Source of the DNA: Candidatus Peribacter riflensis
GTDB taxonomy: Bacteria; Patescibacteriota; Gracilibacteria; Peribacterales; Peribacteraceae
Direction of reading: 5' to 3'
Length of the DNA stretch: 32,000 bases
Assembly (NCBI GenBank): GCA_001430755.1
Contig: CP013062.1
Span: 570,001 to 602,000, forward strand
Shown here: positions 14,220-32,000 of the stretch, one piece after another
How positions within the stretch are numbered: the stretch's first letter is position 1
How the letters are laid out: every line of letters begins with the position of its first letter
Program-made: the position numbers and the translations under genes
The notes under the pieces: model-generated
Databases searched by the model: none
What the model was told of the DNA's origin: nothing
Seen by the model: the letters and a program-made list of their open reading frames with translations, nothing else

Positions 14220-14255
14220 CAGGGCGTTCCCGCAGTGCGGGGCGCCCTGTTTCGT
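14220..14255 (+). terminator. rho-independent terminator candidate after the MPETG protein gene
   Basis: cagggcg (14220..14226) pairs with cgccctg (14243..14249). An inner 5-bp stem is cccgc/gcggg around the loop agt. TTTCGT follows. The structure begins 24 nt after the stop at 14196. Confidence 0.5.
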
Positions 14256-14344
14256 ATGGACGGATCACCATGAAGCACGGCACCGGTCCATTGCACCCGA
14301 CCTCAAGGGTAGGCAAGACTATAGGGTCTTTCCTCCATCCTCCC

Positions 14345-15619: not shown

Positions 15620-15628
15620 ATCGTGGAT

Positions 15629-15647
15629 GGGAAACCTACGGTTTCCC
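15629..15647 (+). terminator. hairpin directly after the SLH gene stop
   Basis: gggaaacc-tac-ggtttccc, an 8-bp perfect stem with a 3-nt loop, begins 10 nt after the stop at 15619. There is no U-tract, so terminator function is uncertain. Confidence 0.3.
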
Positions 15648-15685
15648 CTCCACGAGCCACCCTTTCCCTTCAATGGTATCGCTTC

Positions 15686-15717
15686 AGTTGTGGGTCCCGT
15701 CAGAGCCACCCACAACT
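15686..15717. terminator. second hairpin in the convergent intergenic region
   Basis: agttgtgggt (15686..15695) pairs with acccacaact (15708..15717), a 10-bp stem with a 12-nt loop. It lies between the convergent SLH gene and the transglutaminase-like gene. No clear U-tract on either strand. Confidence 0.3.
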
Positions 15718-15732
15718 TCGCGATGGATTATT

Positions 15733-16341: not shown

Positions 16342-16390
16342 GCACGGAACACGATAGCCTGATGATTCTATTTCAGAAAGAGACCCTTCA

Positions 16391-17671
16391 CTATCTCTCA
16401 ATCATCTTCTCTGCCAATTCCGTGATATCCCCCGCTCCGAGCGTGAGGAGCACATCGCGCGGCCTGAGAACCATCTGCGTGAGGAGCGTTGCGGTCTCCT
16501 CGAGGGATCGGCCATACAGTGCTTCAACGTGACTTTCCTGACCAATGGCGGAGACGAATCGCTCCACATCAACCATTCCGCTGTCCATCGAGCGGCGGAC
16601 ATCGTAGATAGTCGGGATGATGACGACCGAGGCTCCTTCGAAAGCGCGCGTGAATGCCTCATACAATTTGAGCGTGCGGTCGTGCGTGTGCGGCTGGAAG
16701 ACGACCACAAGCCGTCGACCGGGATACGCCTGCAAGAGTGCCTGCAACGTCGCACGGATCTCGGTGGGATGGTGCCCGTAGTCATCGATGACCGTCACGC
16801 CCTCTTTCGTCTCGCCACGCACTTCCATCCGCCGCCAGCATCCGGCATAGCCCGCGAGCGAGGCCAGCATCTGTTCGCGCTTGAGTTGAAGCTCCTCCGC
16901 GAGCGCCAGAACGAGCTGCGCATTCTGCTGCATGTGAAGGCCGGGAGTGGAGAGAGCCGGCAGCGGCAAGACATCCGCATCGATCAGCCGACGTGCGCCG
17001 TGAGCGACAATCGCCGTGCAGACGGCATCTTGGCCATGCGTGATCACCGGGCCATCCGGAGGCAGACGCTTCACGAAATCCACGAACGCCTGCTCGTACT
17101 CCTGCTGCGACCGGTAGTAGTCGAAATGATCGCCGTCCGCATTGGTGAGGAGGATGAATGACGGAGAGAGAAAGTGAAAGGACCTGCGGTACTCGCATGC
17201 CTCGACGAGAAAGAGGTCGCTTCCTCCGTTGCGCCAGTTGCGGCCATTGAGCTCGCGGAGCTTCGTGCCGACGATCACGCTGGGATCGAGCCCCGCTTCG
17301 ATGAGCACGCGCGCCGCCATCGCGGTGGTGGATGATTTGCCGTGCGTGCCGGCGACGGCGATCACCCGCTGTCCGCGAGAGAGATCTCCGAGCGCCTGAA
17401 AGTACGACTGCTGCTTCACCCCGAGTGCCGCGGCGCGCACCCGCTCGGGGCTGCCTTCGGGCACCGCCTCGGAGTACACGAAGAGGTCGAGGTCGTCCGG
17501 TACGGCCGAACCATCCTGCTTCAGAGACACGGTGATCCCCTGCCCTCTCAGATCCCGCACGATGGCGGAATCGGCGCGGTCGCTGCCAAGCACATCGTGT
17601 CCGCGACTCTTCTGGTAGGCCGCATAGGCCGAGAGCCCTATCCCGCCGATGCCACTGCAGTAGATCTTCAT
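16391..17671 (-). CDS. murC: UDP-N-acetylmuramate--L-alanine ligase
   Basis: MKIYCSGIGGIGLSAYA, the P-loop AGTHGKSSTTAM, EACEYRRSF and DDYGHHPTEI are the MurC/Mur-ligase signatures, in the right order and spacing. The start at 17671 is ATG. Confidence 0.93.
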   Translation of the reverse strand: MKIYCSGIGGIGLSAYAAYQKSRGHDVLGSDRADSAIVRDLRGQGITVSLKQDGSAVPDDLDLFVYSEAVPEGSPERVRAAALGVKQQSYFQALGDLSRGQRVIAVAGTHGKSSTTAMAARVLIEAGLDPSVIVGTKLRELNGRNWRNGGSDLFLVEACEYRRSFHFLSPSFILLTNADGDHFDYYRSQQEYEQAFVDFVKRLPPDGPVITHGQDAVCTAIVAHGARRLIDADVLPLPALSTPGLHMQQNAQLVLALAEELQLKREQMLASLAGYAGCWRRMEVRGETKEGVTVIDDYGHHPTEIRATLQALLQAYPGRRLVVVFQPHTHDRTLKLYEAFTRAFEGASVVIIPTIYDVRRSMDSGMVDVERFVSAIGQESHVEALYGRSLEETATLLTQMVLRPRDVLLTLGAGDITELAEKMIER

Positions 17672-18841: not shown

Positions 18842-18909
18842 GGCCGCAACACTTCCCATTGCATCCGCATGATGTTTTATTGAGAGGGTTTTATCTGTAC
18901 CATGGGCCC

Positions 18910-19599
18910 ATGTCTGACATCGGAGGTCCAGAAATCGGGGCACCCGGCGAGGGCGCGGGAGGAGGATTCGAAGAGCTGAGTGAAGAGGCCAAGCAGCGCT
19001 TCGCCGCCGCGGCTGCCGGCATGCAGCAGATCCGGCGGGAGGAGAAGAAGAGCAAGCGCCGTGATGACCAGGTCGCCAAAGCGATCGTGCAGTTTTTGGA
19101 CGAAGCCGAGCACTCGCACCTCTTCGTGCTGATCTCCCGCTTGGTCGCCCGCGACTGCCCCTCGATCTTCATCCTCGCGATCCTCTCGCTCATTCATCAG
19201 GGCTGCCGCGAAACGGTGAAAGAATACCTCAGTGAAATGCTGAACGAGGTACCCGAACCCGATCTCGCAGCGGCCACGGCGCTCACGAAGGGCGGCGCCA
19301 TTGCCGCGGAGGATGGCCAGATCCTCATCCGCTGGATCACGCGCCTGCAGACGGTCCTGTCGCTCGACGTCGCAGGGATTCTCTTAAAGCTCATGATCGA
19401 CGAGAAGCACATCGACGGCACCATCCTGCAACTCACCACCTTTGTGCTCCAGGAATTTTTCCAGTCACAGAAGAAAGAAATCCCATTCGAAAAATTGCAG
19501 CCGCTCACGGCGAGCATCCTGCAGACGGTCTTCGAACCGTTCATCCCGAGCGTGCGCAAACTCCTGCTGGAGCGAGCGGCAACGAAGAAAGAAGACTGA
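18910..19599 (+). CDS. hypothetical protein
   Basis: The track ORF starts at TTG 18859. The first in-frame ATG is 18910 (MSDIGGPEIG...). The protein is helical-looking with a charged N-terminal region (QQIRREEKKSKRRDDQ). No motif recognised. Confidence 0.6.
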   Translation: MSDIGGPEIGAPGEGAGGGFEELSEEAKQRFAAAAAGMQQIRREEKKSKRRDDQVAKAIVQFLDEAEHSHLFVLISRLVARDCPSIFILAILSLIHQGCRETVKEYLSEMLNEVPEPDLAAATALTKGGAIAAEDGQILIRWITRLQTVLSLDVAGILLKLMIDEKHIDGTILQLTTFVLQEFFQSQKKEIPFEKLQPLTASILQTVFEPFIPSVRKLLLERAATKKED

Positions 19600-19614
19600 G
19601 ACGACACGGGAGGA

Positions 19615-20022
19615 TTAGATTTCCGCACAAGGAAAATCCTGAAGCGCCGTCTGCTTCACACCGTTCACTTCGCCGTACAGCCGCAGCCGATCCACCGGAA
19701 TGGCGAATGCAGTTCCTTCAAGAATCTTCATCACCTTCTTCTTCACGATAGTGAATCTCTGCGGATGAGCGATGCGCGCGAGCGTGATATGCGGCACAAA
19801 GGGACGTCCGTCGGACCACGGACACGTCTTCTTCACCCGCGCCAGCTCTTCACTGAAGCCAACGGGCAGAAAGAGCACGTGCTCCTCTCCCCTGCTGCCG
19901 AAGGTATCCGCACCCATCACGTGCATCGTGAACGGCCGATGGAGTAGTGCGATTTTCCGTGCCTGCGCCGCGATGCCCTGGTATTCGAGCGGCCCCACGC
20001 TCGGCCAGAACATAAGGGTCAA
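19615..20022 (-). CDS. thpR: 2H phosphoesterase (2'-5' RNA ligase / ThpR-LigT family); the true N-terminus is probably upstream of 20022
   Basis: The second H-x-T-x motif is VPHITLARI. The first, PHLTLMF, straddles the only available start, TTG 20022, so the His at 20025..20023 lies just outside the track ORF. The frame stays open upstream to a stop at 20208..20206. That stretch encodes a family-typical N-terminal strand (RSVFLALPLEGNPKWQFQALQEELKPF) but contains no ATG, GTG or TTG. Confidence 0.7.
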   Translation of the reverse strand: MTLMFWPSVGPLEYQGIAAQARKIALLHRPFTMHVMGADTFGSRGEEHVLFLPVGFSEELARVKKTCPWSDGRPFVPHITLARIAHPQRFTIVKKKVMKILEGTAFAIPVDRLRLYGEVNGVKQTALQDFPCAEI

Positions 20023-20176
20023 GTGCGGTGATTGCGGATTCTGAAAACGGAGAATATCCGCAAAGGGTTTCAGCTCCTCCTGAAGCGCCTGAAACTGCCA
20101 CTTGGGGTTGCCCTCGAGCGGGAGGGCGAGAAAGACGGACCGGAGGGGGAAGTTGAGAGATTGGATACCGAAGGAG

Positions 20177-20265
20177 GAATATCGGAGTAACAGAGTATCA
20201 GAATATCAGTGAAACAACCCCGACCCTGCATACTGATATTCTGATATTCCGATATTCTGATACTC
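20177..20265. repeat. two convergent arrays of four tandem octamers (consensus TGATAYTC)
   Basis: Left array on the + strand: GAATATCG 20177..20184, GAGTAACA 20185..20192, GAGTATCA 20193..20200, GAATATCA 20201..20208. Right array: TGATATTC 20234..20241, TGATATTC 20242..20249, CGATATTC 20250..20257, TGATACTC 20258..20265. The arms are reverse complements of one another around a 25-nt G/C-richer spacer. The innermost 8 bp pair perfectly and the next 8 bp have one mismatch. Confidence 0.85.
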
Positions 20266-20267
20266 CA

Positions 20268-22085
20268 CTACGATCGCTTCAGCACGGTCAGAAATGCCTC
20301 CTGTGTCAACGTCACCCGGCCCATCTTCTTCATGCGCTTCTTGCCCTTCTTCTGCTTCTCGAGGAGCTTATTCTTGCGCGTCACATCCCCGCCGTAGAGG
20401 TACCCCGTCACGTCTTTGCGGTAGGCTGCCACCGTCTCGCGCGCGACGATCTTGCCGCCAATAGCGGCCTGAATGGGAATCTGGAACTGTTGCTTGGGCA
20501 TGACCTCCTTGAGCTTCTTTGCGATCACCGCACCCACATGGTGCGCTTCACTGCGATGCACAATAGTCGAGAGCGCATCGGCGCTCTCACCGAGCAGAAG
20601 AATCTGAAGCTTCACGAGGTCTCCCGCCCGGTAACCGATGGGATCGTAACTCATGGAGCCGTAGCCGGAGGTGGCGGACTTGAGGAGGTCGAAGAAGTCG
20701 AGGACGATTGCCTGCAGCGGCACCTCGAAAGTGAGGAGGGCACGATCGGCATCGAGGTAGCTCAAGTCCAACTGGATGCCGCGGCGATCCCCGATGAGCG
20801 TCATGGCCGCGCCGATATCCTGTGCCCTGCACACGATCTCGAGCTTCACCCACGGCTCGCGCACTTCGGCGATGCACGAGGGATCGGGAAAGTCGGCGGG
20901 ATTGCTGATGCGCGCCGTATCAGGCTCGTCCACTTTGAGCAGGCTGGCACGCACCACTTCCGCGGGACGGCGAACCGCAAGCTTCACCTCGTAGAGCACG
21001 CTCGGCGCGGTGATGATGAGATCGCAGTCATGCTCGCGCTCCAGTCGCTCCTGCACGATATCCATGTGGAGCAGACCCAAAAATCCGCACCGGAATCCGT
21101 TGCCCAGCGCCGCATTGTGCTCCGGCTCAAATTTGAGGGCGGCATCGTTGAGGGCCAGCTTCTCGAGCGCCTCGCGCAGGTCTGGATAGTTGTCGGCCTC
21201 CGACGGATAGAGCCCGGCGAAAACCATGGGCTGCACCTCCGTGTACCCGGGCAGAGCCTGCAGACCTTCTGTGGATGCCACGGTGTCTCCCGTACGGACC
21301 GAGCGGACATCTTTCGACCCCGTGACGATGTAGCCGATCTCACCTTCCGCGAGAGCGGGGTCCGATGCGTACTTGGGAGAGAAGTGCCCCAGATCCAAGA
21401 CCTCGACGGGAGTTTTGGTCCCCAGCAGGTGCGCCTTGTCCCCTTTCGTAAATGTGCCCTCGACCACGCGTACGTAGGCGACGGCCCCGCGGTACGGATC
21501 CATCACCGCATCGAAGATGAGTGCGCGTGCTCCGCCCGACTGAGCGAACTTTTTGGGGGGCGGAACCAGCTGCACCACCCTGTCGAGAACCTCGGTGACT
21601 CCCCTGCCCTCTTTTGCCGAAATCCGCAGGATCTCTTCCTTCTCACAGCCGAGCAACTTCATCACTTCTTCGCTCACCCGTTCAGGATCCGCCGCAGGCA
21701 GATCGATCTTATTGAGCACGGGAATAATTGTGAGGTTACATTCCATCGCCATCGTCAGCACAGCGAGCGTCTGGGCCTGAATGCCCTGCGAGCAATCAAC
21801 GAGCAGAATGGCACCCTCGCACGCCACAAGACTACGGCTCACCTCGTAGCGGAAATCGGTATGCCCGGGCGTGTCGATGAGGTTCAATTGGATTCCTTTC
21901 CAGCCCATGCGCACCGGGGTCAATTTAATCGTGATGCCGCGCTCACGCTCCAGATCCATCATATCGAGGAGCTGCTCTTTCATCTCGCGCTTCTGCAGCG
22001 TGCCCGTGGCCTCGATCATACGGTCGGCAAGAGTAGATTTGCCATGATCGATATGCGCGATAATGCAGAAGTTACGGATTTCCAT
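20268..22085 (-). CDS. lepA: elongation factor 4 (LepA)
   Basis: MEIRNFCIIAHIDHGKSTLADR (G1), DTPGHTDF (G3) and NKIDL (G4), with the LepA-specific C-terminal region conserved throughout. The track start is GTG 22091; ATG 22085 gives the canonical N-terminus. Confidence 0.95.
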   Translation of the reverse strand: MEIRNFCIIAHIDHGKSTLADRMIEATGTLQKREMKEQLLDMMDLERERGITIKLTPVRMGWKGIQLNLIDTPGHTDFRYEVSRSLVACEGAILLVDCSQGIQAQTLAVLTMAMECNLTIIPVLNKIDLPAADPERVSEEVMKLLGCEKEEILRISAKEGRGVTEVLDRVVQLVPPPKKFAQSGGARALIFDAVMDPYRGAVAYVRVVEGTFTKGDKAHLLGTKTPVEVLDLGHFSPKYASDPALAEGEIGYIVTGSKDVRSVRTGDTVASTEGLQALPGYTEVQPMVFAGLYPSEADNYPDLREALEKLALNDAALKFEPEHNAALGNGFRCGFLGLLHMDIVQERLEREHDCDLIITAPSVLYEVKLAVRRPAEVVRASLLKVDEPDTARISNPADFPDPSCIAEVREPWVKLEIVCRAQDIGAAMTLIGDRRGIQLDLSYLDADRALLTFEVPLQAIVLDFFDLLKSATSGYGSMSYDPIGYRAGDLVKLQILLLGESADALSTIVHRSEAHHVGAVIAKKLKEVMPKQQFQIPIQAAIGGKIVARETVAAYRKDVTGYLYGGDVTRKNKLLEKQKKGKKRMKKMGRVTLTQEAFLTVLKRS

Positions 22086-22140
22086 GCCCACTCATCCTAC
22101 TGAGCGCCACGTCGAAACTCCAGACACAAGATGGAAACAA

Positions 22141-22163
22141 GGGAAGATAATTGAAGACTTCCC
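22141..22163 (-). terminator. weak hairpin between the 1575-aa gene and lepA
   Basis: On the minus strand this reads GGGAAG-tcttcaattat-CTTCCC followed by TTGTTTCC. The stem is only 6 bp, so it could attenuate rather than terminate. Confidence 0.3.
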
Positions 22164-22175
22164 ACGGCATTCACC

Positions 22176-25100
22176 TCATTGGAATGATTCCATGTTCTTC
22201 AGAATCCGCCCATATGCCTTGCTCGACACTGTCCCATCCAGAAGGTTATTGAGGAGCACATGGAGGAACTGCCGGGGATCCTTCGTCTTTTCGTAGAGAG
22301 GCAAGAGTTTTGCGAAGAGATTTTGACGATATTCCGCTGGACCCCACGAGAATGACGAGCGATACGTGGTGAGATCGAGCAGACGATGCAATTCATATGC
22401 ACGAACCTTGCGCAGAAATGCAGCATCATGTTCTTTGGGATGACCACTGAGATTGAGCGGCGTCGAGAGAACAGCAAAACCAAGATCCTGGTCTTCTTTC
22501 GTGAACGCGTCGGTGGGTTCCTGTGTGAGCATGTCCAGGCGACGTATGGTATACGTAAAGGTTTTTCCGTCTTTATCCGCAGAAAAACGGAAGGCATCTG
22601 ATTCCTGTGGAAGCCATACCCCCTTGTTCTCGCGGTGCACACCCATGCTCGGCACGCCGATCTGATCGAGGAATGCAGAAGTGAATTTCACATCGTGCCC
22701 TCCGAGATGTCCCCGAAATTCTCCGGGCGACAACGAGAGCTCCTTCGCGGCTTCATTCCGCTTATACACACCCGGAACATACAACATCTCTGGCATCTGC
22801 TGCGCGCGCTCAACGGCACGATCGTGCATGAGTTGCTGCTCCTGCTCCAACCGATCGCCCTCCGCATGCTCCTGCTCCCACTTTGTCTCCTGTGCATTCA
22901 GTCTCTGTCGCGCTGCACGCTCCGCATTCTGCCGACGATCGATAAGGGTTTTACGTGCCTGTTCCAAGAGACGAGACAATCCGGGTTTGCGCTCAGCTTC
23001 GCGCATGGTGACCGGCTGCAGCAATCCGGGAATGACTTGTAGATTCGTGTTATTGAGTTGCGCAGTTGCTGCTGCCTGTTGCAGAACGAGCACGCGACCG
23101 TTCTCGAGATCCCCGAGAACGTAGGTTGCAAGCACCATGTCATGATTCCCCGGAAGATTGCGTCCCTCGTAGAAGACCGCGCGGAGCGGAAGATGAGGGA
23201 ATCCTTCGGGCAACTTCACACTCGTGAGTTTTCGGCTGACTCGGTGACTCACGCTCCCAGCAGTGAAAACGAGAGTCGGCTCAGATTCCTCGCCAAAGAA
23301 ACCCTCGGTGAGCTGATGATTGAACCGGAACGCCGCACGTCGCTCCCCCACGCGTTTGTCGGACTCGATGAGGTCGATGCCATCGATCGTGATGTGCTCA
23401 AGGCCATTGGCGAGCGTCGTCTGATCCGCACTTGCTCCCAAAAACGCATCGAGCAGCCCCGGTTCACTCTTGATCGATTTTTTGCCCGATGCCGAGCGAA
23501 TGTTATCGGCGGCAGTCGCTGCGTAACTCGTGGGGAAATCGAAATGCGCAATGGCTCCCATGAGCGTGGCATCCTTGGGCCACTTGAGTTCCACGGCATC
23601 CGTGAACGTTTTGATATCGTGCCACTCCTTGCCCTCTGCATTCTGCTGTTCCCCCACATCACGAGGGAGAACGCGCGAAAGACGCATGCGCAACGCCGGA
23701 TCGGCAATGAGTTGTTCCAGCAACGCATCACCTGATGCAAAATTCAGATCCTCGCGCAGGCCAGGAACGCTCCCTGCAGGAACAGTAAGGGGCTCCTTGC
23801 GGTCGACACGGGCTGCAAGTTCTTCAACAAGTCGTTGCACACGGGTTCGTCCCTGCGCATCGACAAGCTGATCCCGTTCAAGAGAATGCAGTGGCGTGCC
23901 GAATGCCGTTTTCGCTCCGAGAGCATGCACGACGTCGGTTAGCACTCCCTGCACACCTCTGTCGCCATCGGGAACCGCCCGGTATTGCTCAAGAGCATCT
24001 ACCGCATGCACATATTCCCGCTCCTTGCGGTGCTCGAGGTACACGACCAACGCCTCGCGCAGGGCGCGACGAACATTCACAGATGAAATATCAGGCGTGC
24101 GCGCCGGAGCCAGACTAAATCCGCCCACGCGCCCCGCCCTGATATCGTCGACCGAGAGCGCCCCGTCCGAGAGCTGCCAGAGCCGCACGGCATAGTACGG
24201 CAGCAGTACGGACCTGAAATCCTCTTTGAAGAAGGCGTCCACATTCTTGGGATGCATTCCCGTGGGATAGAGTGCATCGATGAGTTCCGGTACGTTCGCA
24301 AGCTCGTCGTGCAGTATGCAAAAGAGCACCTTCTCGCGGATATTTTTCTTCTGTTCGCCGGACTTGCTCGTGATCGGATCTGTCAGCATCAATTCCGATG
24401 TCGTCGCAAGCATCCCGTACTTCTTTTCTCCGATCGTATGTTCGACATCGATTTTTGCGAGCAACCATGCCGGGCAACGCTCAAGGAAAGTTCGATCGGC
24501 CTTTTGATCAATGCCATAGACAAGCGTCTCGATCGCCACCTCCGCCGCAAGAACCGGAAGCGACGCACGTAGTGGAGCCGTTCCCTTCCGTATCGTACTC
24601 AGAGCGCGCAGGATCATCGGCAACTCAACGATGTCTCCTCCGATACGCACAATCTGGGCAATCTCGTGCCCCTGCTCTGCGGCCTTTAGCTCCGCAACGT
24701 TCACGGTGCACACCGTTCCTCCGTCCTTGTACGTGAATCGCGCATTCTGATCGGGAGGATCTGCCTCGAATCCCGCCAGCTTGAGATCGGCGATGATCAG
24801 CTTTTCGCGCTGTTCGATGATGCGGTCCATCGCTCCCAGCTCCTTCACGTCTTCGTAGATGCGATAGATCTGCAACGCAGTGAGACCGGTCGTCAGAATT
24901 GCAGAAGGCTTCAGTAGATTCCACGTTGTAGCGGGAAGACGACTGATACCGCGAATGATTGCAGGAGCTTTGCGGAGCAGGTAGAGAGTCGCACCCGTCG
25001 CCGAGCCACCGACAATCCACGGCAGCAGTGCGCCCACAGCCGCAGTGATTCCCAACGCCTTGAGCAAAGTCATCCAGCCCTGTTTGATCGCATTGATCTC

Positions 25101-26903
25101 GGCCTTGAGATTCAGACGAATATCGACCAGATTTTCCATAGAGCCGAGAAACTGCTCGTAGTCATCAGCAAATGCTTCGGAATCGGCCTTCATCTGCCTG
25201 AGCATGAGGACGTATGCCGTAGCTCCGTTGATGGTCATCTGCTGACCGTTGACCGTCACGACCTGTCCCTCGGGGCTTGCTGCAAACTGCGAGCCGTCGA
25301 GCTGGGCGAGTACCTCTGTCTGTACATCTTGCGCGACGAATGTCTTGGCGGGCTGCATGCGTTTGATGGCAGCAAGCGTCTGCTGGAACTTGCCAATGCT
25401 GCCCTTGTCGCGAAAGGCAATGATGACATCACGGATCTTCTGCAGCTTTTGCTCTTTCGTGAGCGGTTTACCATCCGGCCCCACACCGCTCTCAAGCGAC
25501 TCACGGATTGCAAGGGGCAGTACGCTGTCGAACCAATCGGCAATCGCCTTCTTGCGCTCCCCTTCAGGAACAAGAGAGAGAATGGCACCGCTCACCATGC
25601 CCGAAAGTCGATTGGCACTCCCCACAAGCTCCATGATTCCCGCGTCCGAAAGACTCTCAAGTCCATTCGGATCGAACGAGGTATTGACCTGTTGCAGCAT
25701 GGCTTCGAGACGACCGATGTGAAATTCTTTCGCTCCGTCGATGCTGCTTTCAACTTTTGTACGAACCTCTTCTGGCGTCATGGAACCGAACGGCTTGAAC
25801 GCCCCGTTAAAATCGTAGGAGTTTCCGAACTGATTCTGCATGGTCGTGAGTTCGCCCATGGCCACGTGGTGCGCCGACATCTGCTTCGTCACGAGAACCA
25901 TCCGATCCATAATCGACATGCGCTCACGGCGCATGAGCTTCTGCACACCGGCCCGCTGCTCATCGGTCAATTCCGGGCTCTTCATCACCTGCGTCTGCTG
26001 ATCGAGCACCTGGTTGTAGCGTTCTTGCAATACCCGCAGGTACACCCGCTGTGGGAGGAACTCTTTCGGGGCGCCCGGCAAATCGGTTCCCGCAGGGTTG
26101 CCCTTGAGCATATTGATGATACGGTTCTCGAGCACGACGACGTGATCACTGCGCTGCTTCATGATCTGCTCGAGGATGATCGCTTTCTTCGAGTGATCTT
26201 TCTCGGCGAGATACTGTGCACGCAGATCTGCTTCGACAGCGAGAACCTTCTGCGCATCGGGGGATAAAGACGCATAAGCCGCATCACGCGTCTTCTGATA
26301 TTCCTGCAGTCGCTTCTTCTGCGCGGGCATATGTGAGAGTTCCTCAATCTGCTCATCGAGAGAGAGGATGCTCGCAAAGTGCACGCGCTGCTGCACAAGC
26401 TCTTTGAGTGCATGAAGGTAACGAATGGCCTGCAGCTGCTCCTGTTCCAGCTCCGCCCTGCGCTCCGGCGGCAAGTGGGGAATGATCGCCTGCAGTTCCT
26501 CGCCACACGACTGCATCAGATCCGCAACGCCCCGAACTGTGGCGGGGAGGTATTGGTTGTACGTCACAGCTTGGTTTGCGATGATCAGTTCTCTGTGTCG
26601 ATCGATGTCCTGTCGGATCGGAATGTCGCGCAGATCCGCTTCGAGCTGCAATGCCTTGCGACGCATCTTAAGCTCGTTGGACAATGCGAGCTCTGCAAAA
26701 TCCTGATAGACCACATGCCCGTTGGTACACTCCGCCAGTCTTTGATCAATATCCTCCTGCGCAAGATGTTCAGGCAGCGTACGTTCTGCGCCGAGCATCT
26801 GTTGCAATGCCATCGCCTCCACAGTCAGCGCGCGCGGAGTTCCCTTCAGAGCTTCACGTGATTTGGGGGAGGTCGGTTCTGTTGTTTGTTTTTCGATACC
26901 CAT
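22176..26903 (-). CDS. giant hypothetical membrane protein (1575 aa), no recognisable domain
   Basis: Uninterrupted 4.7-kb ORF with an ATG start at 26903. There is no N-terminal signal sequence. Long helical or coiled-coil-looking segments are present. Hydrophobic segments lie at about aa 609-643 (WMTLLKALGITAAVGALLPWIVGGSATGATLYLL) and aa 663-683 (LLKPSAILTTGLTALQIYRIY), at nt about 24855..25079. I could find no P-loop, HExxH or other catalytic motif. The gene looks less GC-rich than purL or murC. Confidence 0.85.
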   Translation of the reverse strand: MGIEKQTTEPTSPKSREALKGTPRALTVEAMALQQMLGAERTLPEHLAQEDIDQRLAECTNGHVVYQDFAELALSNELKMRRKALQLEADLRDIPIRQDIDRHRELIIANQAVTYNQYLPATVRGVADLMQSCGEELQAIIPHLPPERRAELEQEQLQAIRYLHALKELVQQRVHFASILSLDEQIEELSHMPAQKKRLQEYQKTRDAAYASLSPDAQKVLAVEADLRAQYLAEKDHSKKAIILEQIMKQRSDHVVVLENRIINMLKGNPAGTDLPGAPKEFLPQRVYLRVLQERYNQVLDQQTQVMKSPELTDEQRAGVQKLMRRERMSIMDRMVLVTKQMSAHHVAMGELTTMQNQFGNSYDFNGAFKPFGSMTPEEVRTKVESSIDGAKEFHIGRLEAMLQQVNTSFDPNGLESLSDAGIMELVGSANRLSGMVSGAILSLVPEGERKKAIADWFDSVLPLAIRESLESGVGPDGKPLTKEQKLQKIRDVIIAFRDKGSIGKFQQTLAAIKRMQPAKTFVAQDVQTEVLAQLDGSQFAASPEGQVVTVNGQQMTINGATAYVLMLRQMKADSEAFADDYEQFLGSMENLVDIRLNLKAEINAIKQGWMTLLKALGITAAVGALLPWIVGGSATGATLYLLRKAPAIIRGISRLPATTWNLLKPSAILTTGLTALQIYRIYEDVKELGAMDRIIEQREKLIIADLKLAGFEADPPDQNARFTYKDGGTVCTVNVAELKAAEQGHEIAQIVRIGGDIVELPMILRALSTIRKGTAPLRASLPVLAAEVAIETLVYGIDQKADRTFLERCPAWLLAKIDVEHTIGEKKYGMLATTSELMLTDPITSKSGEQKKNIREKVLFCILHDELANVPELIDALYPTGMHPKNVDAFFKEDFRSVLLPYYAVRLWQLSDGALSVDDIRAGRVGGFSLAPARTPDISSVNVRRALREALVVYLEHRKEREYVHAVDALEQYRAVPDGDRGVQGVLTDVVHALGAKTAFGTPLHSLERDQLVDAQGRTRVQRLVEELAARVDRKEPLTVPAGSVPGLREDLNFASGDALLEQLIADPALRMRLSRVLPRDVGEQQNAEGKEWHDIKTFTDAVELKWPKDATLMGAIAHFDFPTSYAATAADNIRSASGKKSIKSEPGLLDAFLGASADQTTLANGLEHITIDGIDLIESDKRVGERRAAFRFNHQLTEGFFGEESEPTLVFTAGSVSHRVSRKLTSVKLPEGFPHLPLRAVFYEGRNLPGNHDMVLATYVLGDLENGRVLVLQQAAATAQLNNTNLQVIPGLLQPVTMREAERKPGLSRLLEQARKTLIDRRQNAERAARQRLNAQETKWEQEHAEGDRLEQEQQLMHDRAVERAQQMPEMLYVPGVYKRNEAAKELSLSPGEFRGHLGGHDVKFTSAFLDQIGVPSMGVHRENKGVWLPQESDAFRFSADKDGKTFTYTIRRLDMLTQEPTDAFTKEDQDLGFAVLSTPLNLSGHPKEHDAAFLRKVRAYELHRLLDLTTYRSSFSWGPAEYRQNLFAKLLPLYEKTKDPRQFLHVLLNNLLDGTVSSKAYGRILKNMESFQ

Positions 26904-26909
26904 ACTGTT

Positions 26910-27524
26910 CTAGTGGGGCGCGTTAGGGGGGAAGAAGTCCGCAGCCCCGCCGGTGGGCGGAGGTGGCAGAGGAAGGTTGGGAGCTCCGGTCGGCCCCGGC
27001 ATGGGATTGGAGGGAATAATCCCCCCTTGAGGTATTGCCTCGAATGCACCACCCGTCGTTGGGGCAACAGTGTCAGCGGCGGCAGCGGCTCCCTCCATAG
27101 GATTGGGGACGGCTACAAGACCGCCCAACTGATCCCACGCGAGGTAGGCTCCGCCCGCCACGAGTGCTGCAAGGATGAGGAGCGTGAGCATGGGATGTCG
27201 TTTCATCGTGTCCCATGTCGCCTGCGTAGCGCGACCCGGGAGCTTGAGGACCTTCTCGTACCACCGCTCTTTGCGGGCGATCTCCTGCTTGTTGAGCTTG
27301 AGATGTGTGATGAGAGCATCCACCTGCCCGTTGAGCTTGGGGTCCCGCTTGCGCAGAGCTTCCACCAGCTTCTCGCGCTTCTCGACCGAATCCAGTGCCG
27401 ACTCGAATTCCTCAATCTTCTTGAAGCCCAGCTTCTGCGCGTAATCCACCATCTCTTCGCGGTTTCTGAAAACCGGAAAAGCGGCGGGCTGCTCGCGGCC
27501 GGCGGAGGGAGTGGCAGTGGCCAT
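26910..27524 (-). CDS. hypothetical single-pass membrane protein with a Pro/Gly-rich C-terminal tail
   Basis: 204 aa. It has a charged helical N-terminal half and a TM helix (MLTLLILAALVAGGAYLAW). The tail is PNPMEGAAAAADTV...PNLPLPPPPTGGAADFFPPNAPH. The ATG at 27524 shares its A with the TAA stop of the upstream gene (TAATG). Its own stop lies 6 nt before the 1575-aa gene ATG. Confidence 0.7.
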   Translation of the reverse strand: MATATPSAGREQPAAFPVFRNREEMVDYAQKLGFKKIEEFESALDSVEKREKLVEALRKRDPKLNGQVDALITHLKLNKQEIARKERWYEKVLKLPGRATQATWDTMKRHPMLTLLILAALVAGGAYLAWDQLGGLVAVPNPMEGAAAAADTVAPTTGGAFEAIPQGGIIPSNPMPGPTGAPNLPLPPPPTGGAADFFPPNAPH

Positions 27525-27922
27525 TATACGGTTACAGTATTGGAAAGAAGCATCTCGTGACGGAGGAGAGAGAGGCCCATGAGCCCCTCAACATCCTCAT
27601 CGCTCCGAATCTCTTTGAGCAGTGATGCCATGAGCACCGACAGGCCTTTCGCCCCGATCGTGAAGCAGAGCTCCGGAAGAACCTCCTGCGGCACATCGTG
27701 GAGAGAGAGTGTGGAGAGTGCGCTGCCCGCCTCCACCTGCTTCGCGAGGGCTGCAACCTGCGGGAATTCCACGAAAGACACCATCTGCTGACGCATCGAA
27801 AGTTCTTCAGCTGACTCGTAAGCAGATGAACGCTCCTCCTGCACCTCCCACCCCTCCTTCAGCTTCTCTGGAAGGGCTGCAAACACCTTCTGTTCCCCGT
27901 CAGTGAGGTGGAGTGTATTCAC
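27524..27922 (-). CDS. hypothetical small acidic protein (132 aa)
   Basis: The GTG start at 27922 overlaps the csaB-like stop by 4 nt (GTGA). The sequence is protein-like (MNTLHLTDGEQKVFAALPEKLKEGWEVQEE...). No motif recognised. Confidence 0.6.
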   Translation of the reverse strand: MNTLHLTDGEQKVFAALPEKLKEGWEVQEERSSAYESAEELSMRQQMVSFVEFPQVAALAKQVEAGSALSTLSLHDVPQEVLPELCFTIGAKGLSVLMASLLKEIRSDEDVEGLMGLSLLRHEMLLSNTVTV

Positions 27923-28995
27923 AACTGTATTCTACCAGATTCGCTGAATACTGGGAATAGAACCTTCCGAAGCGCGTTCTCTCCGTCTGAGAGCAGTGCG
28001 GAAAGGGCCGGGGCAGAGAGTCCGGAGAGCGAAGAGAGTTTGTCCCCCTCCGCTTGTGGTACCGCCTCGCAGGGAACACCGAGCGCCAGAGCCGCCAGTG
28101 CGCCGTGATAGCGCTCGGCAAGGACCAACTGTGCTCCGGAAACTTCTGCAATCAATGCCTCAACAGAGCCAACTGCAATGATCGCAGACTCGGGGAGAGA
28201 GAGTGCACCGGCGATAGACCGGCAGACATGTTGCTCCGCCCGGTCCTCCGGCTGGAGCGAGAGAATATGTACCGCGTCCCATGACTCGGAATTTCTAAGC
28301 GCAGTCGCCCGCTCATTGAATGGAATCGAGGAGTTTCCACGCGGAATAATAACGAGCAATTTTTGTGAACTGCTGCTGTTGTTTTCCGCTTTAAATAGAG
28401 AAAGTGCAGGGTCAGCTGTTTGAATAATTTTTGTATTCATCTTCCATGATTGCACACGCTGAAATGTTGCGTCATCCCGCACGCTCACAAAGCGCGCATG
28501 ACGCACGGTCCACCGCGCGCACCACTCCCCCACCCTCGTGCGGAAAGGACCGATCCCCTGAAAGGCGAGGAAGAAGGGCTTACGGAGCATCCAACAGACG
28601 AACGCATGCCACCACCACAGCAGGCAGGCCCCCACAGACTCGATATCCGTGAAGAGCGTTCCTCCGCCGAAGACGAGACCGTCGCTCGAACGAAGCGCCC
28701 GGAGGGTCCTCCACCAGGGCGTGAGGAATAGTGAGCGGAAACCGGCAGACAGGCGGGGCAATTCCCCTGTCTTTCGATGCGCAGAGAGCACGAGCCATTC
28801 CCCTTCCGGGAACGCACGAAGAAAGTACTCCCGGAGCGCCTCGTCCCCGAAATTGCCTACGCCGTAGTTCCCGACAAGCACATACCGCACGAGCGCAGTA
28901 TACAGTGGACGGTATGCATATTCCGGGGAACATCCGGAAAGGGGGCGAATTGTCACAGTGAGCACTGTCGAACTGCGACAATGTCTCGTATGCAT
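27919..28995 (-). CDS. csaB: polysaccharide pyruvyl transferase, CsaB-like
   Basis: VLVGNYGVGNFGDEALREYF, LVFGGGTLFTDIES, LAFQGIGPF and ERYHGALAALALGVP follow the order and spacing of the pyruvyl-transferase (CsaB) family motifs. The start is uncertain. The track uses TTG 29043, the first ATG is 28995, and GTG 28890 would give the family-typical N-terminus (VRYVLVGNYG). Confidence 0.72.
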   Translation of the reverse strand: MHTRHCRSSTVLTVTIRPLSGCSPEYAYRPLYTALVRYVLVGNYGVGNFGDEALREYFLRAFPEGEWLVLSAHRKTGELPRLSAGFRSLFLTPWWRTLRALRSSDGLVFGGGTLFTDIESVGACLLWWWHAFVCWMLRKPFFLAFQGIGPFRTRVGEWCARWTVRHARFVSVRDDATFQRVQSWKMNTKIIQTADPALSLFKAENNSSSSQKLLVIIPRGNSSIPFNERATALRNSESWDAVHILSLQPEDRAEQHVCRSIAGALSLPESAIIAVGSVEALIAEVSGAQLVLAERYHGALAALALGVPCEAVPQAEGDKLSSLSGLSAPALSALLSDGENALRKVLFPVFSESGRIQL

Positions 28996-29081
28996 GTGGT
29001 TCGACCCCCCTTCGCCCTTCGGGCTACGGCGAGGCAGGCACAACTCACCATGACATACCTGCAGGATAGAGAACCTCCTGC

Positions 29082-29534
29082 CTACTCTGTCTTTTTTTCC
29101 TCTTTCACAGTCTCAGCGGCAGACACCTCTTCCTTGACCGGCTCTGGGGCTGCTGCAATGGAAAATTCCTCAGCAGTCGTGAAGCGCTCGCTTAAGCGGG
29201 CGGACTTGCCCAGACGGCCGCGGAGGAAATTGAGCTTCGCGCGGCGGACAGCTGCCACCTTCTTCACCTCGATTTTCTTCACGACGGCGGACGAGAGCGG
29301 AAAGTTTTTCTCGACCCCGACCCCCGACGCAATCCGGCGAACCGTGATCGTGCGATCGGTGGGGACATGCCCGTTATGCACGCCGATCACGAGCCCCTCG
29401 AAGATCTGAATGCGCCCCTTGCCGCCCTCCTCATCCTGAATCTGCTCGTGCACACGCACGGTGTACCCGGGTTTGATCTCGGGATGCTTGGAAGCGAACC
29501 GCTCGGCCTGCTCGTGGAGAATCTGATGAACCAT
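29082..29534 (-). CDS. rplS: 50S ribosomal protein L19
   Basis: KPGYTVRVHEQIQDEEGGKGRIQIFEGLVIGVHNGH...ITVRRIASGVGVEKNFPLSSAVVKKIEVKK...RRAKLNFLRGRLGKSARL matches the L19 core. A C-terminal extension of about 35 aa is rich in Glu, Lys and Ala. The track start is TTG 29549; ATG 29534 is preferred. Confidence 0.93.
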   Translation of the reverse strand: MVHQILHEQAERFASKHPEIKPGYTVRVHEQIQDEEGGKGRIQIFEGLVIGVHNGHVPTDRTITVRRIASGVGVEKNFPLSSAVVKKIEVKKVAAVRRAKLNFLRGRLGKSARLSERFTTAEEFSIAAAPEPVKEEVSAAETVKEEKKTE

Positions 29535-29593
29535 GAGGAAAGTGGGCAAAGGCTACAGAGGAGCGCTTCTGAAGTAAAGTAAAATCTCTCCTT

Positions 29594-29622
29594 CCCTACC
29601 CCCTAACCCTATCCCTATCCCC
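29594..29622 (-). other. G-quadruplex-type G-tract run on the coding strand upstream of rplS
   Basis: The minus strand reads GGGG-ATA-GGG-ATA-GGG-TTA-GGGGG-TA-GGG, five G-runs of at least 3 with loops of 2-3 nt. It starts at the TAG stop of the wHTH gene (29624..29622) and ends about 60 nt before the rplS start. Confidence 0.5.
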
Positions 29623-30215
29623 TATTTCTTCAGCGCCTCATCGATCTGCCGCTGCAGGGAATTCACGAGGATCAGGTGACGCGGATCATTGAGAATCTCG
29701 GTGACGAAGCGGTCTTTCAGGCTCAACCGGTAGAGGAAATCCCCCTCGGAGAAGATGGAGTACTTGATGTGCTTGAGATTCGGATCCTGCAGCAGCAGGG
29801 CCTCGACCACTTCCTTCTTCACATCCCCCACGATGAGCAGATCCACCTTGCTCTCGGAACCCACGAAGGTGCCTGCGAGCAGAATGAGTTTGACGCCCGA
29901 GATCTTCTTTAAGCTCGACACAATGGGGCTCTCAGCCTGGATCTCTTTCGTAAAGATGCCGCGCAGCTCATGGAACAGGGGAAAATCCGGATCGATGTGA
30001 TAGTACTTCTTGCGATTCCGATGGCGTGCGCGCACGAGCCCGATGTGCCTCAGATTCTCGAGCTCTCTGCGGATGGAATTGATCTGCTCATGCAGCAGCC
30101 GCGTGAGTTCACGAATGAAATACTCCTCTTCGGGATGGAGGAGAAATGTCGAGAGGAGCTTCACGCGCGTCTGCGAACTAAACAGTGCTTTAAGAATCAC
30201 GGATGACACGATCAC
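29622..30215 (-). CDS. winged-helix (ArsR-like) transcriptional regulator with a nucleotidyltransferase-like C-terminal domain
   Basis: The N-terminus (LFSSQTRVKLLSTFLLHPEEEYFIRELTRLLHEQINSIRRELENLRHIGLVRARHRNRKKYY) is a typical wHTH. The C-terminal LAGTFVGSESKVDLLIVGD resembles the GS...D-x-D minimal nucleotidyltransferase motif. The start at 30215 is GTG. Confidence 0.72.
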   Translation of the reverse strand: MIVSSVILKALFSSQTRVKLLSTFLLHPEEEYFIRELTRLLHEQINSIRRELENLRHIGLVRARHRNRKKYYHIDPDFPLFHELRGIFTKEIQAESPIVSSLKKISGVKLILLAGTFVGSESKVDLLIVGDVKKEVVEALLLQDPNLKHIKYSIFSEGDFLYRLSLKDRFVTEILNDPRHLILVNSLQRQIDEALKK

Positions 30216-30220
30216 AAAGA

Positions 30221-30234
30221 GTACTCATGAGTAC
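30221..30234. promoter_or_regulatory. perfect 14-bp palindrome, candidate operator of the adjacent wHTH regulator
   Basis: GTACTCATGAGTAC equals its own reverse complement. It lies 5 nt upstream of the regulator start codon (30215, minus strand), at the edge of the 256-bp A/T-rich divergent intergenic region. Confidence 0.4.
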
Positions 30235-30455
30235 ATGGATAGTGCAAGAAAAGTGATCAGACAATTGATCTACTTTATTGTTCAAAAAAGTGCCTTATTG
30301 AAGCCAAAAAGTACGACTAATGCCAAATTATGGGTACATTCGTGAACACTAATTATACTCAACTATGAGGAACTTTTGTGTTCTAAGTATACTTTTCATC
30401 ACTTCCCTGTTCTTCGACCCTACAGCAGACAGTCATTGAGTAAGAGGCCAAAAAG

Positions 30456-30464
30456 TGATAGAAT
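30456..30464 (+). promoter_or_regulatory. extended -10 element (TG-n-TAGAAT) for the membrane-protein gene
   Basis: tgaTAGAAT at 30456..30464. The ATG at 30472 follows after 7 nt, with no Shine-Dalgarno sequence. Confidence 0.35.
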
Positions 30465-30471
30465 AACTAGA

Positions 30472-32000
30472 ATGCTTTCAAAGAGAAAAATCCTCTTCGC
30501 GACGCTCTCTCTCCTGCTCCTCTGCTGGATCACGAGGACTGAAGGTGTGGGCGCTCTCGCCCTCATGCAACCGGCCCTGGCTGCCGGAGATGATCTCGAT
30601 CCCTTCTTCAAGATCATCAACCAGCTCTTCAGCTGGCTTGCCATGTTCTCGCACTTCCTCATCTACATTCTCACGGCAATCGCCGGAATGTTGATGGATC
30701 CTGGTTTCATGAACCTGAGAACCGACGGGCAGTCGATGGGAATGACTCTGCTCAAGATCTGGCAGATCTCGCGCAATATCACCAATATCCTCCTCGCGTT
30801 CCTGCTCATCATCGGAGCCATTATGACCGTGGTGTTCGCAGAGGGCGGCTACGTGCAGAAGTACGCCGTGAAGTTCGTGCTGGCCGTCTTACTCGTCAAT
30901 TTCTCGTGGTTCTTCCCACGGGTGGTCTTGGACCTCGCGAACATCCTCACGGCAACGGTCTACTCGCTCCCCAGTGCCATCAACGTGCCGTGCGTAGCCT
31001 ACGACGCAAAGGGCAATGTCGATCCGGCCGGGTGCAAAATCATCACGGATTTCGCCTTCTTCGGCAATCAACCGGCAGGTGCAGACTGGAAATGCCCCCT
31101 TGATTTCAACGCGGATACGAAAATCGTCTGCATCAAGGAATCCCCACTCGATCCGCAGGCCAATACCCCCAATGCCATCTTCGGCAGCCTTGTCTACAAC
31201 CACGCCCGTTTTCAATTCTTCCCCAAAGTCGTGCCCCCGGCCGGCAACAATCCGGCGGCAGGACCTGCGGCACTGTCCCGCCTGCCGCAACTGCTGATGT
31301 TCACCCTGCTCATGTCCATCATGCTCTTCTTCAGTCTTGCCCTGCTCTTCCCGCTCCTCGCTCTCACACTCGTCCTCCTCATCCGCATTCCCATCATCTG
31401 GATCACCGTGGCCTTCATGCCCTTCATGTTCATCGGATTCGTAGCGGGAGACACCCCCGCACTGAAGGTCTTCAACCCCATGGAAATCTGGAACAAGTTC
31501 CTGCACGCGGCGTTCATTCCCGTCGTCGTCGCCATCCCCTTCTCGATCGGCTTCATCATGCTCAATGTGGCCATGGCCAACCCGCCAGCCGGCTGGGCTG
31601 CCAACCATCCGTTCATGCGGAACGGAGTGGTGCCCATGCTGCCCGGCGTCATCAACCTCTGGCAGCTTCTGTGGGTCGGCATGTCGATCGCCGTCATATG
31701 GATGGGCGCAAAAGCCGCCTTCAAGATGGATGCCCTGTTTGAGAAATTCGCTGCACCCATCATGAATGCCGGCGCATCCTTCGGACGGTTGATGATGAAG
31801 CTGCCGCTCCTGACCCCCCTGCCACTGCCGGGAGGTTCCATCACGCCGCTGGGCGCCATGCGCGTCGCGCAGAATGCCGAACATGCATTCATCGACCCCG
31901 TCGGAAAATTCCGCATGCCGGAGGTCTTCGGCGGCGCGGCAGGAGCTGCCGCAGTCGCAGGCACGAAACTCGCCGATCACATCAACATCAACGTGCCGAT
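30472..32000 (+). CDS. polytopic integral membrane protein (C-terminal end runs off the window end)
   Basis: Absent from the ORF track because it has no stop in the window. Manual translation from ATG 30472 stays open to 32000, about 509 codons (MLSKRKILFATLSLLLLCWITRTEG...). Multiple hydrophobic helices are present (FSWLAMFSHFLIYILTAIAGML, ITNILLAFLLIIGAIMTVVF, FVLAVLLVNFSWFF, LLMFTLLMSIMLFFSLALLFPLLALTLVLLI, IIWITVAFMPFMFIGF, AAFIPVVVAIPFSIGFIMLNVA, LWQLLWVGMSIAVIWMG). One loop carries four Cys (VPCVAYDAKGNVDPAGCKII...WKCPLDFNADTKIVCIKE). The minus-strand ORFs 30889..31980 and 31212..31964 are its antisense shadows. Confidence 0.8.
   Translation, partial: MLSKRKILFATLSLLLLCWITRTEGVGALALMQPALAAGDDLDPFFKIINQLFSWLAMFSHFLIYILTAIAGMLMDPGFMNLRTDGQSMGMTLLKIWQISRNITNILLAFLLIIGAIMTVVFAEGGYVQKYAVKFVLAVLLVNFSWFFPRVVLDLANILTATVYSLPSAINVPCVAYDAKGNVDPAGCKIITDFAFFGNQPAGADWKCPLDFNADTKIVCIKESPLDPQANTPNAIFGSLVYNHARFQFFPKVVPPAGNNPAAGPAALSRLPQLLMFTLLMSIMLFFSLALLFPLLALTLVLLIRIPIIWITVAFMPFMFIGFVAGDTPALKVFNPMEIWNKFLHAAFIPVVVAIPFSIGFIMLNVAMANPPAGWAANHPFMRNGVVPMLPGVINLWQLLWVGMSIAVIWMGAKAAFKMDALFEKFAAPIMNAGASFGRLMMKLPLLTPLPLPGGSITPLGAMRVAQNAEHAFIDPVGKFRMPEVFGGAAGAAAVAGTKLADHININVP

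Follow-up and report, generated by a model that had tools for sequence, protein, structure and literature searches.

What is encoded by three tightly spaced minus-strand genes located between a CsaB-like pyruvyl transferase gene and lepA in Candidatus Peribacter riflensis, and could their products form a system of their own? The genes, which code for proteins of 132, 204, and 1575 aa, lie in a window of 32,000 nucleotides (contig CP013062.1, positions 570,001 to 602,000) from this uncultured groundwater bacterium, a member of the Peregrinibacteria within the Candidate Phyla Radiation (CPR). The analysis described here revealed a conserved triad of genes, without known homologues, in which the 1575-aa protein (here called the giant) belongs to a modular family and carries two hydrophobic blocks with the pattern of membrane hairpins. 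A complex in which the giant would act as a scaffold, held to the cytoplasmic face of the membrane by hairpins, is proposed tentatively below. The triad and its direct neighbors are as follows.

27919..29043, minus strand: CsaB-like polysaccharide pyruvyl transferase gene (PF04230, PS_pyruv_trans, E = 1e-27)
27524..27922, minus strand: small acidic protein of 132 aa with a GTG start codon, a six-frame open reading frame (ORF)
26910..27524, minus strand: bitopic protein of 204 aa, a six-frame ORF
22176..26903, minus strand: the giant, 1575 aa and 176 kDa, a six-frame ORF
20268..22091, minus strand: lepA, confirmed as LepA by Pfam, separated from the giant gene by an 84-nt gap

Gene calls were taken from a six-frame list of the ORFs in the window, and Pfam and NCBIfam scans were performed. 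Read directly, the 3' end of csaB (...CAGTTGTGA) holds the GTG of the 132-aa gene in a 4-nt GTGA overlap (27922..27919), the 132-aa and 204-aa genes overlap in a TAATG junction, and the TAG stop codon of the 204-aa gene is followed by six nucleotides (AACAGT) and then the ATG of the giant gene. An earlier model-made account of this DNA, drawn from its letters and referred to here as the sequence-only reading, had given the same three ORFs, sizes, junctions, and position between csaB and lepA. We regard the ORFs as real genes, not chance ORFs, because homologues with 29–85% identity, of the same lengths and in the same order, are found in many independent metagenome-assembled genomes. From the overlaps between stop and start codons, no more than co-transcription and a possible translational coupling can be suggested. 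A database copy of the giant, 100% identical, carries the name “hypothetical protein.”

Loci for comparison were gathered by exact look-up of homologues, a scan of one genome per GTDB species, a metagenome scan, and component hidden Markov models (HMMs) applied to the six-frame ORFs of each locus. Nineteen distinct loci with a relative of the giant were obtained, and 18 of these have a homologue of the small protein upstream and a bitopic protein between the two. The bitopic protein is recognizably homologous to the 204-aa protein in 17 of the 18 loci and has architecture alone in common with it in the remaining one (L019). The giants of these triads measure 1059 aa (L016), ~1550–1925 aa, 2395 aa (L018), and 4397 aa (L019), and the order and tight spacing of the three genes hold even where all flanking genes differ (L001/L006, L011, L013, L015, L018, and L019). 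Because the order is kept in 18 of 19 loci despite a four-fold range in the size of the giant and changed flanking genes, the triad appears to be a conserved functional cluster and the unit itself, and the co-occurrence of its members bears out the grouping made in the sequence-only reading.

One could object that the three genes are neighbors by descent only and do not work together, given that most loci come from a single phylum and that their synteny is partly inherited. This objection is hard to reconcile with the retention of order and tight spacing where every flanking gene differs, with the persistence of the triad although the giant varies four-fold in size, and with the duplication of the genes for the small and bitopic proteins as a unit (see later). 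We consider it very improbable.

The giant itself can be divided into six segments.

25080..26903, minus strand: N-module, residues 1–608, all helical with helices of 20–48 residues (alignment A1; AlphaFold)
24975..25079, minus strand: predicted hydrophobic hairpin 1, residues 609–643, found family-wide by hydropathy
24909..24974, minus strand: basic amphipathic segment, residues 644–665, directly after hairpin 1
24513..24635, minus strand: predicted hydrophobic hairpin 2, residues 757–797, a family-wide hydropathy peak of 1.6
23724..24512, minus strand: globular helical core of the C-module, residues 798–1060 (profile matches; AlphaFold)
22179..23723, minus strand: variable C-terminal region, residues 1061–1575 (columns of alignment A1 beyond ~1210)

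The N-terminus is hydrophilic and lacks a signal peptide, and ~600 residues precede the first hydrophobic block; the sequence-only reading had likewise described a helical protein without signal peptide and with a central hydrophobic region, which starts at residue 609, and the stretch that it quoted (QNAERAARQRLNAQETKWEQEHAEGDRLEQEQQLMHDR) is present. Conserved motifs of the N-module, taken from alignment A1, are LKGNPEG, FLPQRxYL, SIDGAxxFH, and ESLESGVGPDGKPLTKEEKLQKIRDV. Hairpin 1 comprises 34 aa with a conserved LPW...GG break, and family averages for this block are a length of 33.9 aa, 1.3 K+R, 0.1 D+E, and a mean Kyte–Doolittle hydropathy of 1.22. The segment that follows (residues 644–665) is strongly basic (K+R 5.3 versus D+E 0.2) and has the highest hydrophobic moment in the giant (0.70–0.92, compared with a protein-wide 95th percentile of 0.57). 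A spacer of ~113 aa containing a beta-hairpin separates the two hydrophobic blocks. Hairpin 2 comprises ~38 aa, with two arms of ~16 residues around a Gly/Pro turn, and corresponds in distant members to one hydrophobic block of 36–55 aa. Two glutamates one helical turn apart in this hairpin, Glu788 and Glu792 (24528..24542, minus strand; LPVLAAEVAIETLVYG), are invariant among the 11 close homologues, and distant relatives show a V-E...W-E-Q pattern at the same position. Being charged and located within a predicted membrane-inserted segment, these residues may be functionally important. The core of the C-module carries the motifs YGIDQxADRxF, CPAWLLAKI, and H-P and is more widespread in the family than any other part. 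The region beyond it, which includes the Gln/Glu/Arg-rich helix already noted in the sequence-only reading, is conserved in close relatives only and is very variable in length across the family.

Structure prediction supported the helical character of these modules. An AlphaFold2 model of residues 1–1060, calculated from 11 sequences, is almost entirely helical, with a mean predicted local distance difference test (pLDDT) score of 67 and a predicted template modeling (pTM) score of 0.49; residues 30–300 of the N-module reach pLDDT values of ~80–90. For residues 640–1060, a 41-sequence alignment built from distant relatives (A4) gave a model with pLDDT 80 and pTM 0.75, in which the core (residues 800–1040) is mostly above 90.

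The 132-aa protein is acidic (pI 4.59) and has no hydrophobic segment, in agreement with its description as a small soluble protein in the sequence-only reading. In the alignment of 15 homologues (A5), it keeps the motifs L-T-x-x-E (close to the N-terminus), EGWEV, and FF-x-LGP, its gene always lies directly upstream of that of the bitopic partner, and its HMM also matches the genes beside the giants of L018 and L019 (E ~1e-26). The single-pass architecture assigned earlier to the 204-aa protein was recovered too, with one hydrophobic segment, a charged helical N-terminal half before it, and a Pro/Gly-rich tail after it.

27126..27197, minus strand: transmembrane (TM) helix of the 204-aa protein, residues 110–133 (Kyte–Doolittle window score 2.04), kept in all homologues aligned in A6

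A basic KRHP motif precedes this TM helix, and a conserved VPNPMEGAA...PTGG sequence follows it (alignment A6); IPTPERL is another conserved motif of the protein. The N-terminal half is predicted to be cytoplasmic and the tail of ~70 residues to be outside, an N-in orientation that the KRHP motif fits. The junction between the small and bitopic genes is 6 nt or less, or overlapping, except in the two most distant loci. In L004 (5380..7873) and L021 (2546..4985), two copies of the pair lie in tandem between csaB and the giant gene, the upstream copy being the more divergent. The tight or overlapping junction and the joint duplication argue that the small and bitopic proteins act as a couple. 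Profile–profile comparison of either protein with the giant gave no internal homology (probabilities of 2% and 9%).

Do these proteins have known relatives? The three window proteins had no match in Pfam, NCBIfam, PADLOC (0 families), or PHROGs (nothing significant), and Pfam scans of 11 full-length homologues, five distant relatives, and 15 homologues of the small protein returned scattered sub-threshold noise only. Profiles of the giant (A1), its C-module (A4), the small protein (A5), and the bitopic protein (A6) were also run against PDB sequences, again without a significant match. In Foldseek searches of the PDB, the model of residues 1–1060 had no match at E ≤ 0.001, the best being generic helical noise (E = 0.02, TM score ~0.1), and the model of the C-module (pTM 0.75) had none either (best E = 0.94, TM score 0.12); the latter model also lacked a match among the viral structures of BFVD (best E = 0.68). 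A scan of viral contigs (IMG/VR) returned no relatives of the family. Two candidate identities were rejected on the basis of these searches, namely an anti-phage defense system (0 PADLOC families for the three proteins) and a phage or mobile-element family (no PHROGs, IMG/VR, or BFVD match). None of the three proteins falls into any family or structure library that was queried, which formally makes the set categorically new, and no described system matches the triad. The orphan status assigned in the sequence-only reading thus stands, with no confident remote homology detected. The surprise is tempered by the fact that orphan operons are common in CPR genomes; what lifts the triad above the usual “hypothetical” is its strict three-gene conservation over a four-fold range of giant sizes, its predicted paired-hairpin anchor, and a confidently modeled domain unlike solved structures.

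The extent of the family depends on the search used. Word-indexed searches found 11 full-length homologues, and a profile search with alignment A1 returned the same 11; those with a taxonomic name are all Peregrinibacteria. The GTDB-species scan gave nine matches, all in genomes of Peregrinibacteria/Peribacteria except one labeled “bacterium.” An exhaustive HMM search with residues 1–1060 against 1.84 billion cluster representatives yielded 165 proteins at E ≤ 0.001, of which 78 had E ≤ 1e-30. A word-indexed profile search with the C-module alignment (A4) had no match, which reflects a limit of the tool, since the exhaustive search found 165 relatives. The family is modular, consisting of full-length forms, proteins of 900–1200 aa with only the N-module and a hydrophobic region, and proteins of 1500–4400 aa that carry the C-module behind a different N-terminus and in which the profile matches span positions ~650–1040.

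Two loci illustrate this modularity. In L016 (316..4525), the giant has 1059 aa, with the N-module and hydrophobic segments and without the conserved C-module, and lepA is still found downstream. Because this giant is part of a triad, the C-module appears to be dispensable for the core system. In L017 (2426..11195), a 1594-aa protein has only the C-module and two extra N-terminal hydrophobic segments (~135–183), and five unrelated small genes (75, 318, 441, 368, and 85 aa) precede it instead of the small/bitopic pair. The contig belongs to the Peribacteria, as judged from a near-identical prolyl-tRNA synthetase. The L017 protein is thus probably a paralogue within the same phylum, and the locus may represent a second, paralogous system.

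How might the three proteins be arranged? The length of each hydrophobic block of the giant exceeds that of one membrane span but falls short of two, and we therefore read the blocks as helical hairpins dipping into one leaflet. With ~600 residues and no signal peptide ahead of the first block, the giant would in its simplest topology keep every large domain in the cytoplasm, and the basic segment 644–665 obeys the positive-inside rule only in a cytoplasmic position. The arrangement proposed next is inferred in its topology, its physical interactions, and any role in organizing membrane or envelope. The giant would be a scaffold or platform, with its ~600-residue N-module and its ~780-residue C-terminal part both cytoplasmic, pinned to the inner leaflet by hairpins 609–643 and 757–797 and the basic amphipathic helix. 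The cytoplasmic helical half of the 204-aa protein would dock on this scaffold, and its conserved Pro-rich tail would reach the cell-wall side, thereby coupling the scaffold across the membrane; the 132-aa protein would be a soluble adaptor, paired with the bitopic protein. The complex could organize or shape a membrane domain, which in the csaB-adjacent clade might be a site of secondary-cell-wall-polymer or S-layer assembly. We consider a cytoplasmic-face, hairpin-anchored scaffold of this kind, possibly organizing sites of membrane or envelope assembly, to be possible but short of probable.

Several points weigh against this arrangement. Confidence in the AlphaFold models falls below 50 across the two hairpin regions, the window protein shows only moderate hydrophobicity in hairpin 2, and the topology is predicted purely from hydropathy and charge rules. 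An odd number of membrane crossings would put the C-terminal part of the giant outside, and strong variation of C-terminal extensions is a trait more typical of proteins that lie at the surface or interact with a host. The role in envelope assembly is further weakened by the missing link to csaB in eight of the 19 loci and by a ninth whose contig ends just upstream of the triad.

The main alternative places the giant among the surface or host-interaction proteins. The N-module would then be cytoplasmic, an odd number of crossings would display the C-module and variable region outside, the small protein would be a chaperone, and the bitopic protein would help in insertion or export; in an extreme version, the giant would end up in the membrane of a host, as do the hairpin-bearing Inc proteins of chlamydiae. 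The size (130–140 aa) and acidity of the small protein, and its place beside a putative client, may resemble those of secretion chaperones. The C-terminal part of the giants varies hugely in length and sequence (totals of 1059–4397 aa), as is typical of exposed, fast-evolving proteins, a protein with S-layer homology (SLH) and beta-propeller domains adjoins the triad in L018, and Peribacteria have been described as investing in large extracellular proteins, possibly for attachment (PMC4736985). However, a protein with no signal peptide and ~600 residues before its first hydrophobic segment is a poor candidate for display, which would also require an external location for the basic loop that follows hairpin 1, contrary to the positive-inside rule. 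The central Gly/Pro break in each hydrophobic block suggests hairpins and hence even numbers of crossings. Cysteine is very rare in the giant (five of 1575 residues, 0.3%; 0–0.7% across the family), which fits a cytoplasmic location, in contrast to the organism's own extracellular proteins, some of the large ones being described as very cysteine-rich (PMC4736985). Four distant giants and two shorter proteins with the N-module only were free of adhesin-type and Ig-like domains in Pfam scans. Taking both sides together, we find a surface-displayed or delivered giant unlikely.

The link to the cell wall depends on how the triad relates to csaB. The triad directly follows a csaB-like gene in 10 of the 19 loci, in a block of the type L19–csaB–triad–lepA, and this includes a locus whose member is only 29% identical (L014). 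In the window, the block continues upstream of csaB with the L19 gene.

29082..29549, minus strand: rplS, ribosomal protein L19 (confirmed by Pfam)

In eight of the 19 loci, among them L001, L006, L011, L013, L015, L018, and L019, csaB is not beside the triad; L016, where the contig ends just upstream of the triad, was counted apart from these eight. The csaB link is thus clade-specific synteny and not a constant of the system. SLH proteins also occur in the neighborhood: one is encoded in the window at 14210..15619, 6.5 kb from the triad, and others lie near the triad in L003, L004, and L018. In L018, an 835-aa protein with SLH and beta-propeller domains (5226..7733, minus strand) is encoded divergently and immediately upstream of the triad with the 2395-aa giant, and this locus is a second, independent association of the triad with SLH proteins. 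A characterized CsaB relative pyruvylates a lipid-linked repeat, that is, at the membrane (PMC6030368). The action of CsaB on a lipid-linked precursor, the frequent adjacency of csaB, and the nearby SLH proteins together suggest, by context only, a site of envelope assembly.

The sequence-only reading had gone further and seen in the triad an envelope-spanning machine, wired to the CsaB-like enzyme and made at fixed stoichiometry. The 4-nt overlap with csaB in the window, the directly upstream position of csaB in 10 of 19 loci even at 29% identity, and the SLH proteins in the neighborhood are in favor of such a machine. The analysis does not support such an architecture: the giant lacks a signal peptide and has two short predicted hairpins and a basic segment as its membrane contacts, its large domains are predicted to be cytoplasmic, and the only part of the triad predicted beyond the membrane is the ~70 residues of the 204-aa protein, so that nothing could span the wall or S-layer. 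Pfam and NCBIfam scans of the three proteins revealed no ATPase, channel, or secretin-like component. The wiring to csaB is not supported either, the triad standing without csaB in the seven loci named above, and stoichiometry cannot be deduced from gene junctions or overlapping stop and start codons. An envelope-spanning machine with these properties seems to us distinctly unlikely.

Comparison with known systems clarified what the hairpin-anchored scaffold might resemble. Flotillin (SPFH) and NfeD operons combine, as is predicted for the triad, a hairpin-anchored cytoplasmic scaffold that has long helices with a small membrane partner encoded in the same operon, whereas the triad has three components, one of them a giant; membership was rejected as Pfam scans revealed no SPFH/Band_7 or NfeD domain. 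Bitopic linkers of the RodZ type, which join the cytoskeleton to the wall, have a single TM helix like that of the 204-aa protein, with an N-terminal domain in the cytoplasm and a Pro-rich linker on the other side of the membrane, as is predicted for the 204-aa protein. Unlike RodZ, the 204-aa protein has no helix-turn-helix (HTH) or C-terminal beta domain, and its partner would be an orphan giant and not MreB; RodZ membership was rejected because no HTH family was matched, with only QcrA_N and TRIM_CC appearing below threshold. The Inc proteins of chlamydiae have a bilobed hydrophobic hairpin of ~40 aa, helical or coiled-coil flanks, and a small acidic, chaperone-like protein encoded nearby, but they are substrates of type III secretion located in a host-derived membrane and show no sequence similarity to the giant. 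The paper that describes the Peribacteria genomes makes no mention of a type III system (PMC4736985). A class I chaperone of type III secretion was rejected as an identity for the small protein, since none of 15 family members had a CesT/SycE-type Pfam match and no PDB sequence-profile match was found. The transferase encoded upstream was also examined by name: it belongs to Pfam PS_pyruv_trans (98 bits, cutoff 25.3) and falls short of the CsaB equivalog TIGR03609 (134.2 bits versus a cutoff of 213.1), for which reason “CsaB-like pyruvyl transferase” is the defensible name.

Bacterial dynamin-like proteins (BDLPs) and mitofusins resemble the giant, as predicted, in having large helical bundles, a central membrane hairpin or paddle, and, often, small operons. 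This raises the question of whether the triad could be an active membrane-remodeling device for fission, fusion, or repair, with helical bundles flanking an inserted hairpin. Helical bundles are indeed present on both sides of the predicted hairpins, and the syntenic block holds genes for DivIC, a Mur ligase, and MurJ, a hint of a cell-division context. Those genes, however, lie several kb from the triad on the other strand, a matter of synteny only. No Dynamin_N, GTP-binding, P-loop, or other NTPase domain was detected by Pfam or NCBIfam in the three proteins, the homologues of the giant, or the distant relatives tested, and Foldseek showed no similarity to BDLP, mitofusin, ESCRT-III, or BAR structures in the PDB. 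Dynamin/mitofusin membership was rejected on these grounds, and we judge an analogous remodeling activity to be quite improbable.

A parallel to the proposed hairpin-anchored scaffold is offered by the reticulons and REEP/DP1/Yop1 proteins, whose reticulon-homology-domain mechanism (PMC6724692) was used for the comparison. Like the giant, they have two hydrophobic segments of ~30–40 aa, a hydrophilic spacer, an amphipathic helix, and soluble parts on the cytoplasmic side (predicted for the giant). In the giant, the counterparts are two conserved blocks of ~34 and ~38 aa with Gly/Pro breaks, whose hairpin form and sidedness are deduced from length and charge. The giant differs in being bacterial and ~1575 aa long, in having large helical modules on both sides and a spacer of ~113 aa, and in its two dedicated partners. 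Neither the giant nor 10 homologues matched Pfam Reticulon (PF02453) or TB2_DP1_HVA22 (PF03134), with E-values considered up to 0.1–1. Because these homology tests failed, the likeness would be one of architecture and possible mechanism and not of family membership. A more specific proposal is that the triad is a so far unrecognized bacterial membrane-shaping or domain-organizing system, confined to Peregrinibacteria and with paralogues of up to 4400 residues, in which a giant with reticulon-like wedge hairpins and a helical domain of new fold would work with a wall linker and an adaptor; stated in full, we hold this to be improbable.

CPR bacteria are ultra-small and mostly uncultured, little is known of their envelope and cell biology, and no function has been assigned to about half of their genes. 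Against this background, the triad turns a “hypothetical protein” into a testable candidate for the organization of the membrane and possibly of an S-layer-bearing wall. If the reticulon-like mechanism were true, bacteria would have arrived independently at a principle of the eukaryotic endoplasmic reticulum; if it fails, the family is still a structural-genomics target and a marker of Peregrinibacteria.

The base composition of the module had been noted as less GC-rich than that of its neighbors. Overall GC is 0.559 for the giant gene, 0.626 for the 204-aa gene, and 0.566 for the 132-aa gene, compared with 0.599 for lepA and 0.592 for the L19 gene. At third codon positions (GC3), the values are 0.63, 0.71, and 0.66, respectively, and 0.74–0.76 for the reference genes lepA and L19. 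The observation is only weakly true, and csaB is equally low (GC3 0.61). Horizontal transfer was rejected as an explanation because synteny is kept between deeply divergent Peribacteria; the lower GC amounts to a modest shift in GC3, seen in csaB as well, and is no mark of foreign origin.

The module may also be transcribed independently of csaB, from a candidate site within the 3' end of that gene.

27929..27957, minus strand: promoter-like site TTCCCA-17-TAGAAT with a TG extension, sigma-70-like, 7 nt upstream of the start codon of the small gene

Six promoter-like sites were found in the region versus 3.7 expected, which is not statistically significant, and this site is a lead only. Rfam revealed no RNA element within 19000..31000. 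The CsaB-like ORF measures 374 aa from its first TTG. Because homologues are shorter (311–348 aa) and the Pfam domain begins at residue 64, the true start probably lies downstream of 29043.

Elsewhere in the window, a 2229-aa ORF (3667..10356, plus strand) has an N-terminal hydrophobic segment, a very large number of cysteines in CxxC-rich repeats, long low-complexity Ser/Pro and Gly/Ser tracts, and a hydrophobic C-terminal end. It had only a sub-threshold Dicty_CTDC match in Pfam, fits the published description of large, cysteine-rich extracellular proteins in Peribacteria (PMC4736985), and was rejected as a paralogue of the giant, the two being unrelated by HMM. Overlapping ORFs are found on opposite strands at 18859..19599 (plus strand, 246 aa) and 18877..19628 (minus strand; 106, 100, and 143 aa), none with a Pfam match at the gathering threshold. 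The remaining annotated genes are the following.

29622..30215, minus strand: winged-helix-like gene, 197 aa (six-frame ORF)
10450..12969: FGAM synthase
13051..14196: DUF11 repeat protein
14210..15619: SLH-domain protein
16391..17671, minus strand: Mur ligase

The last four of these (window 10450..17671) recur beyond lepA in L003 and L004, which indicates that a large syntenic block is conserved across Peribacteria.

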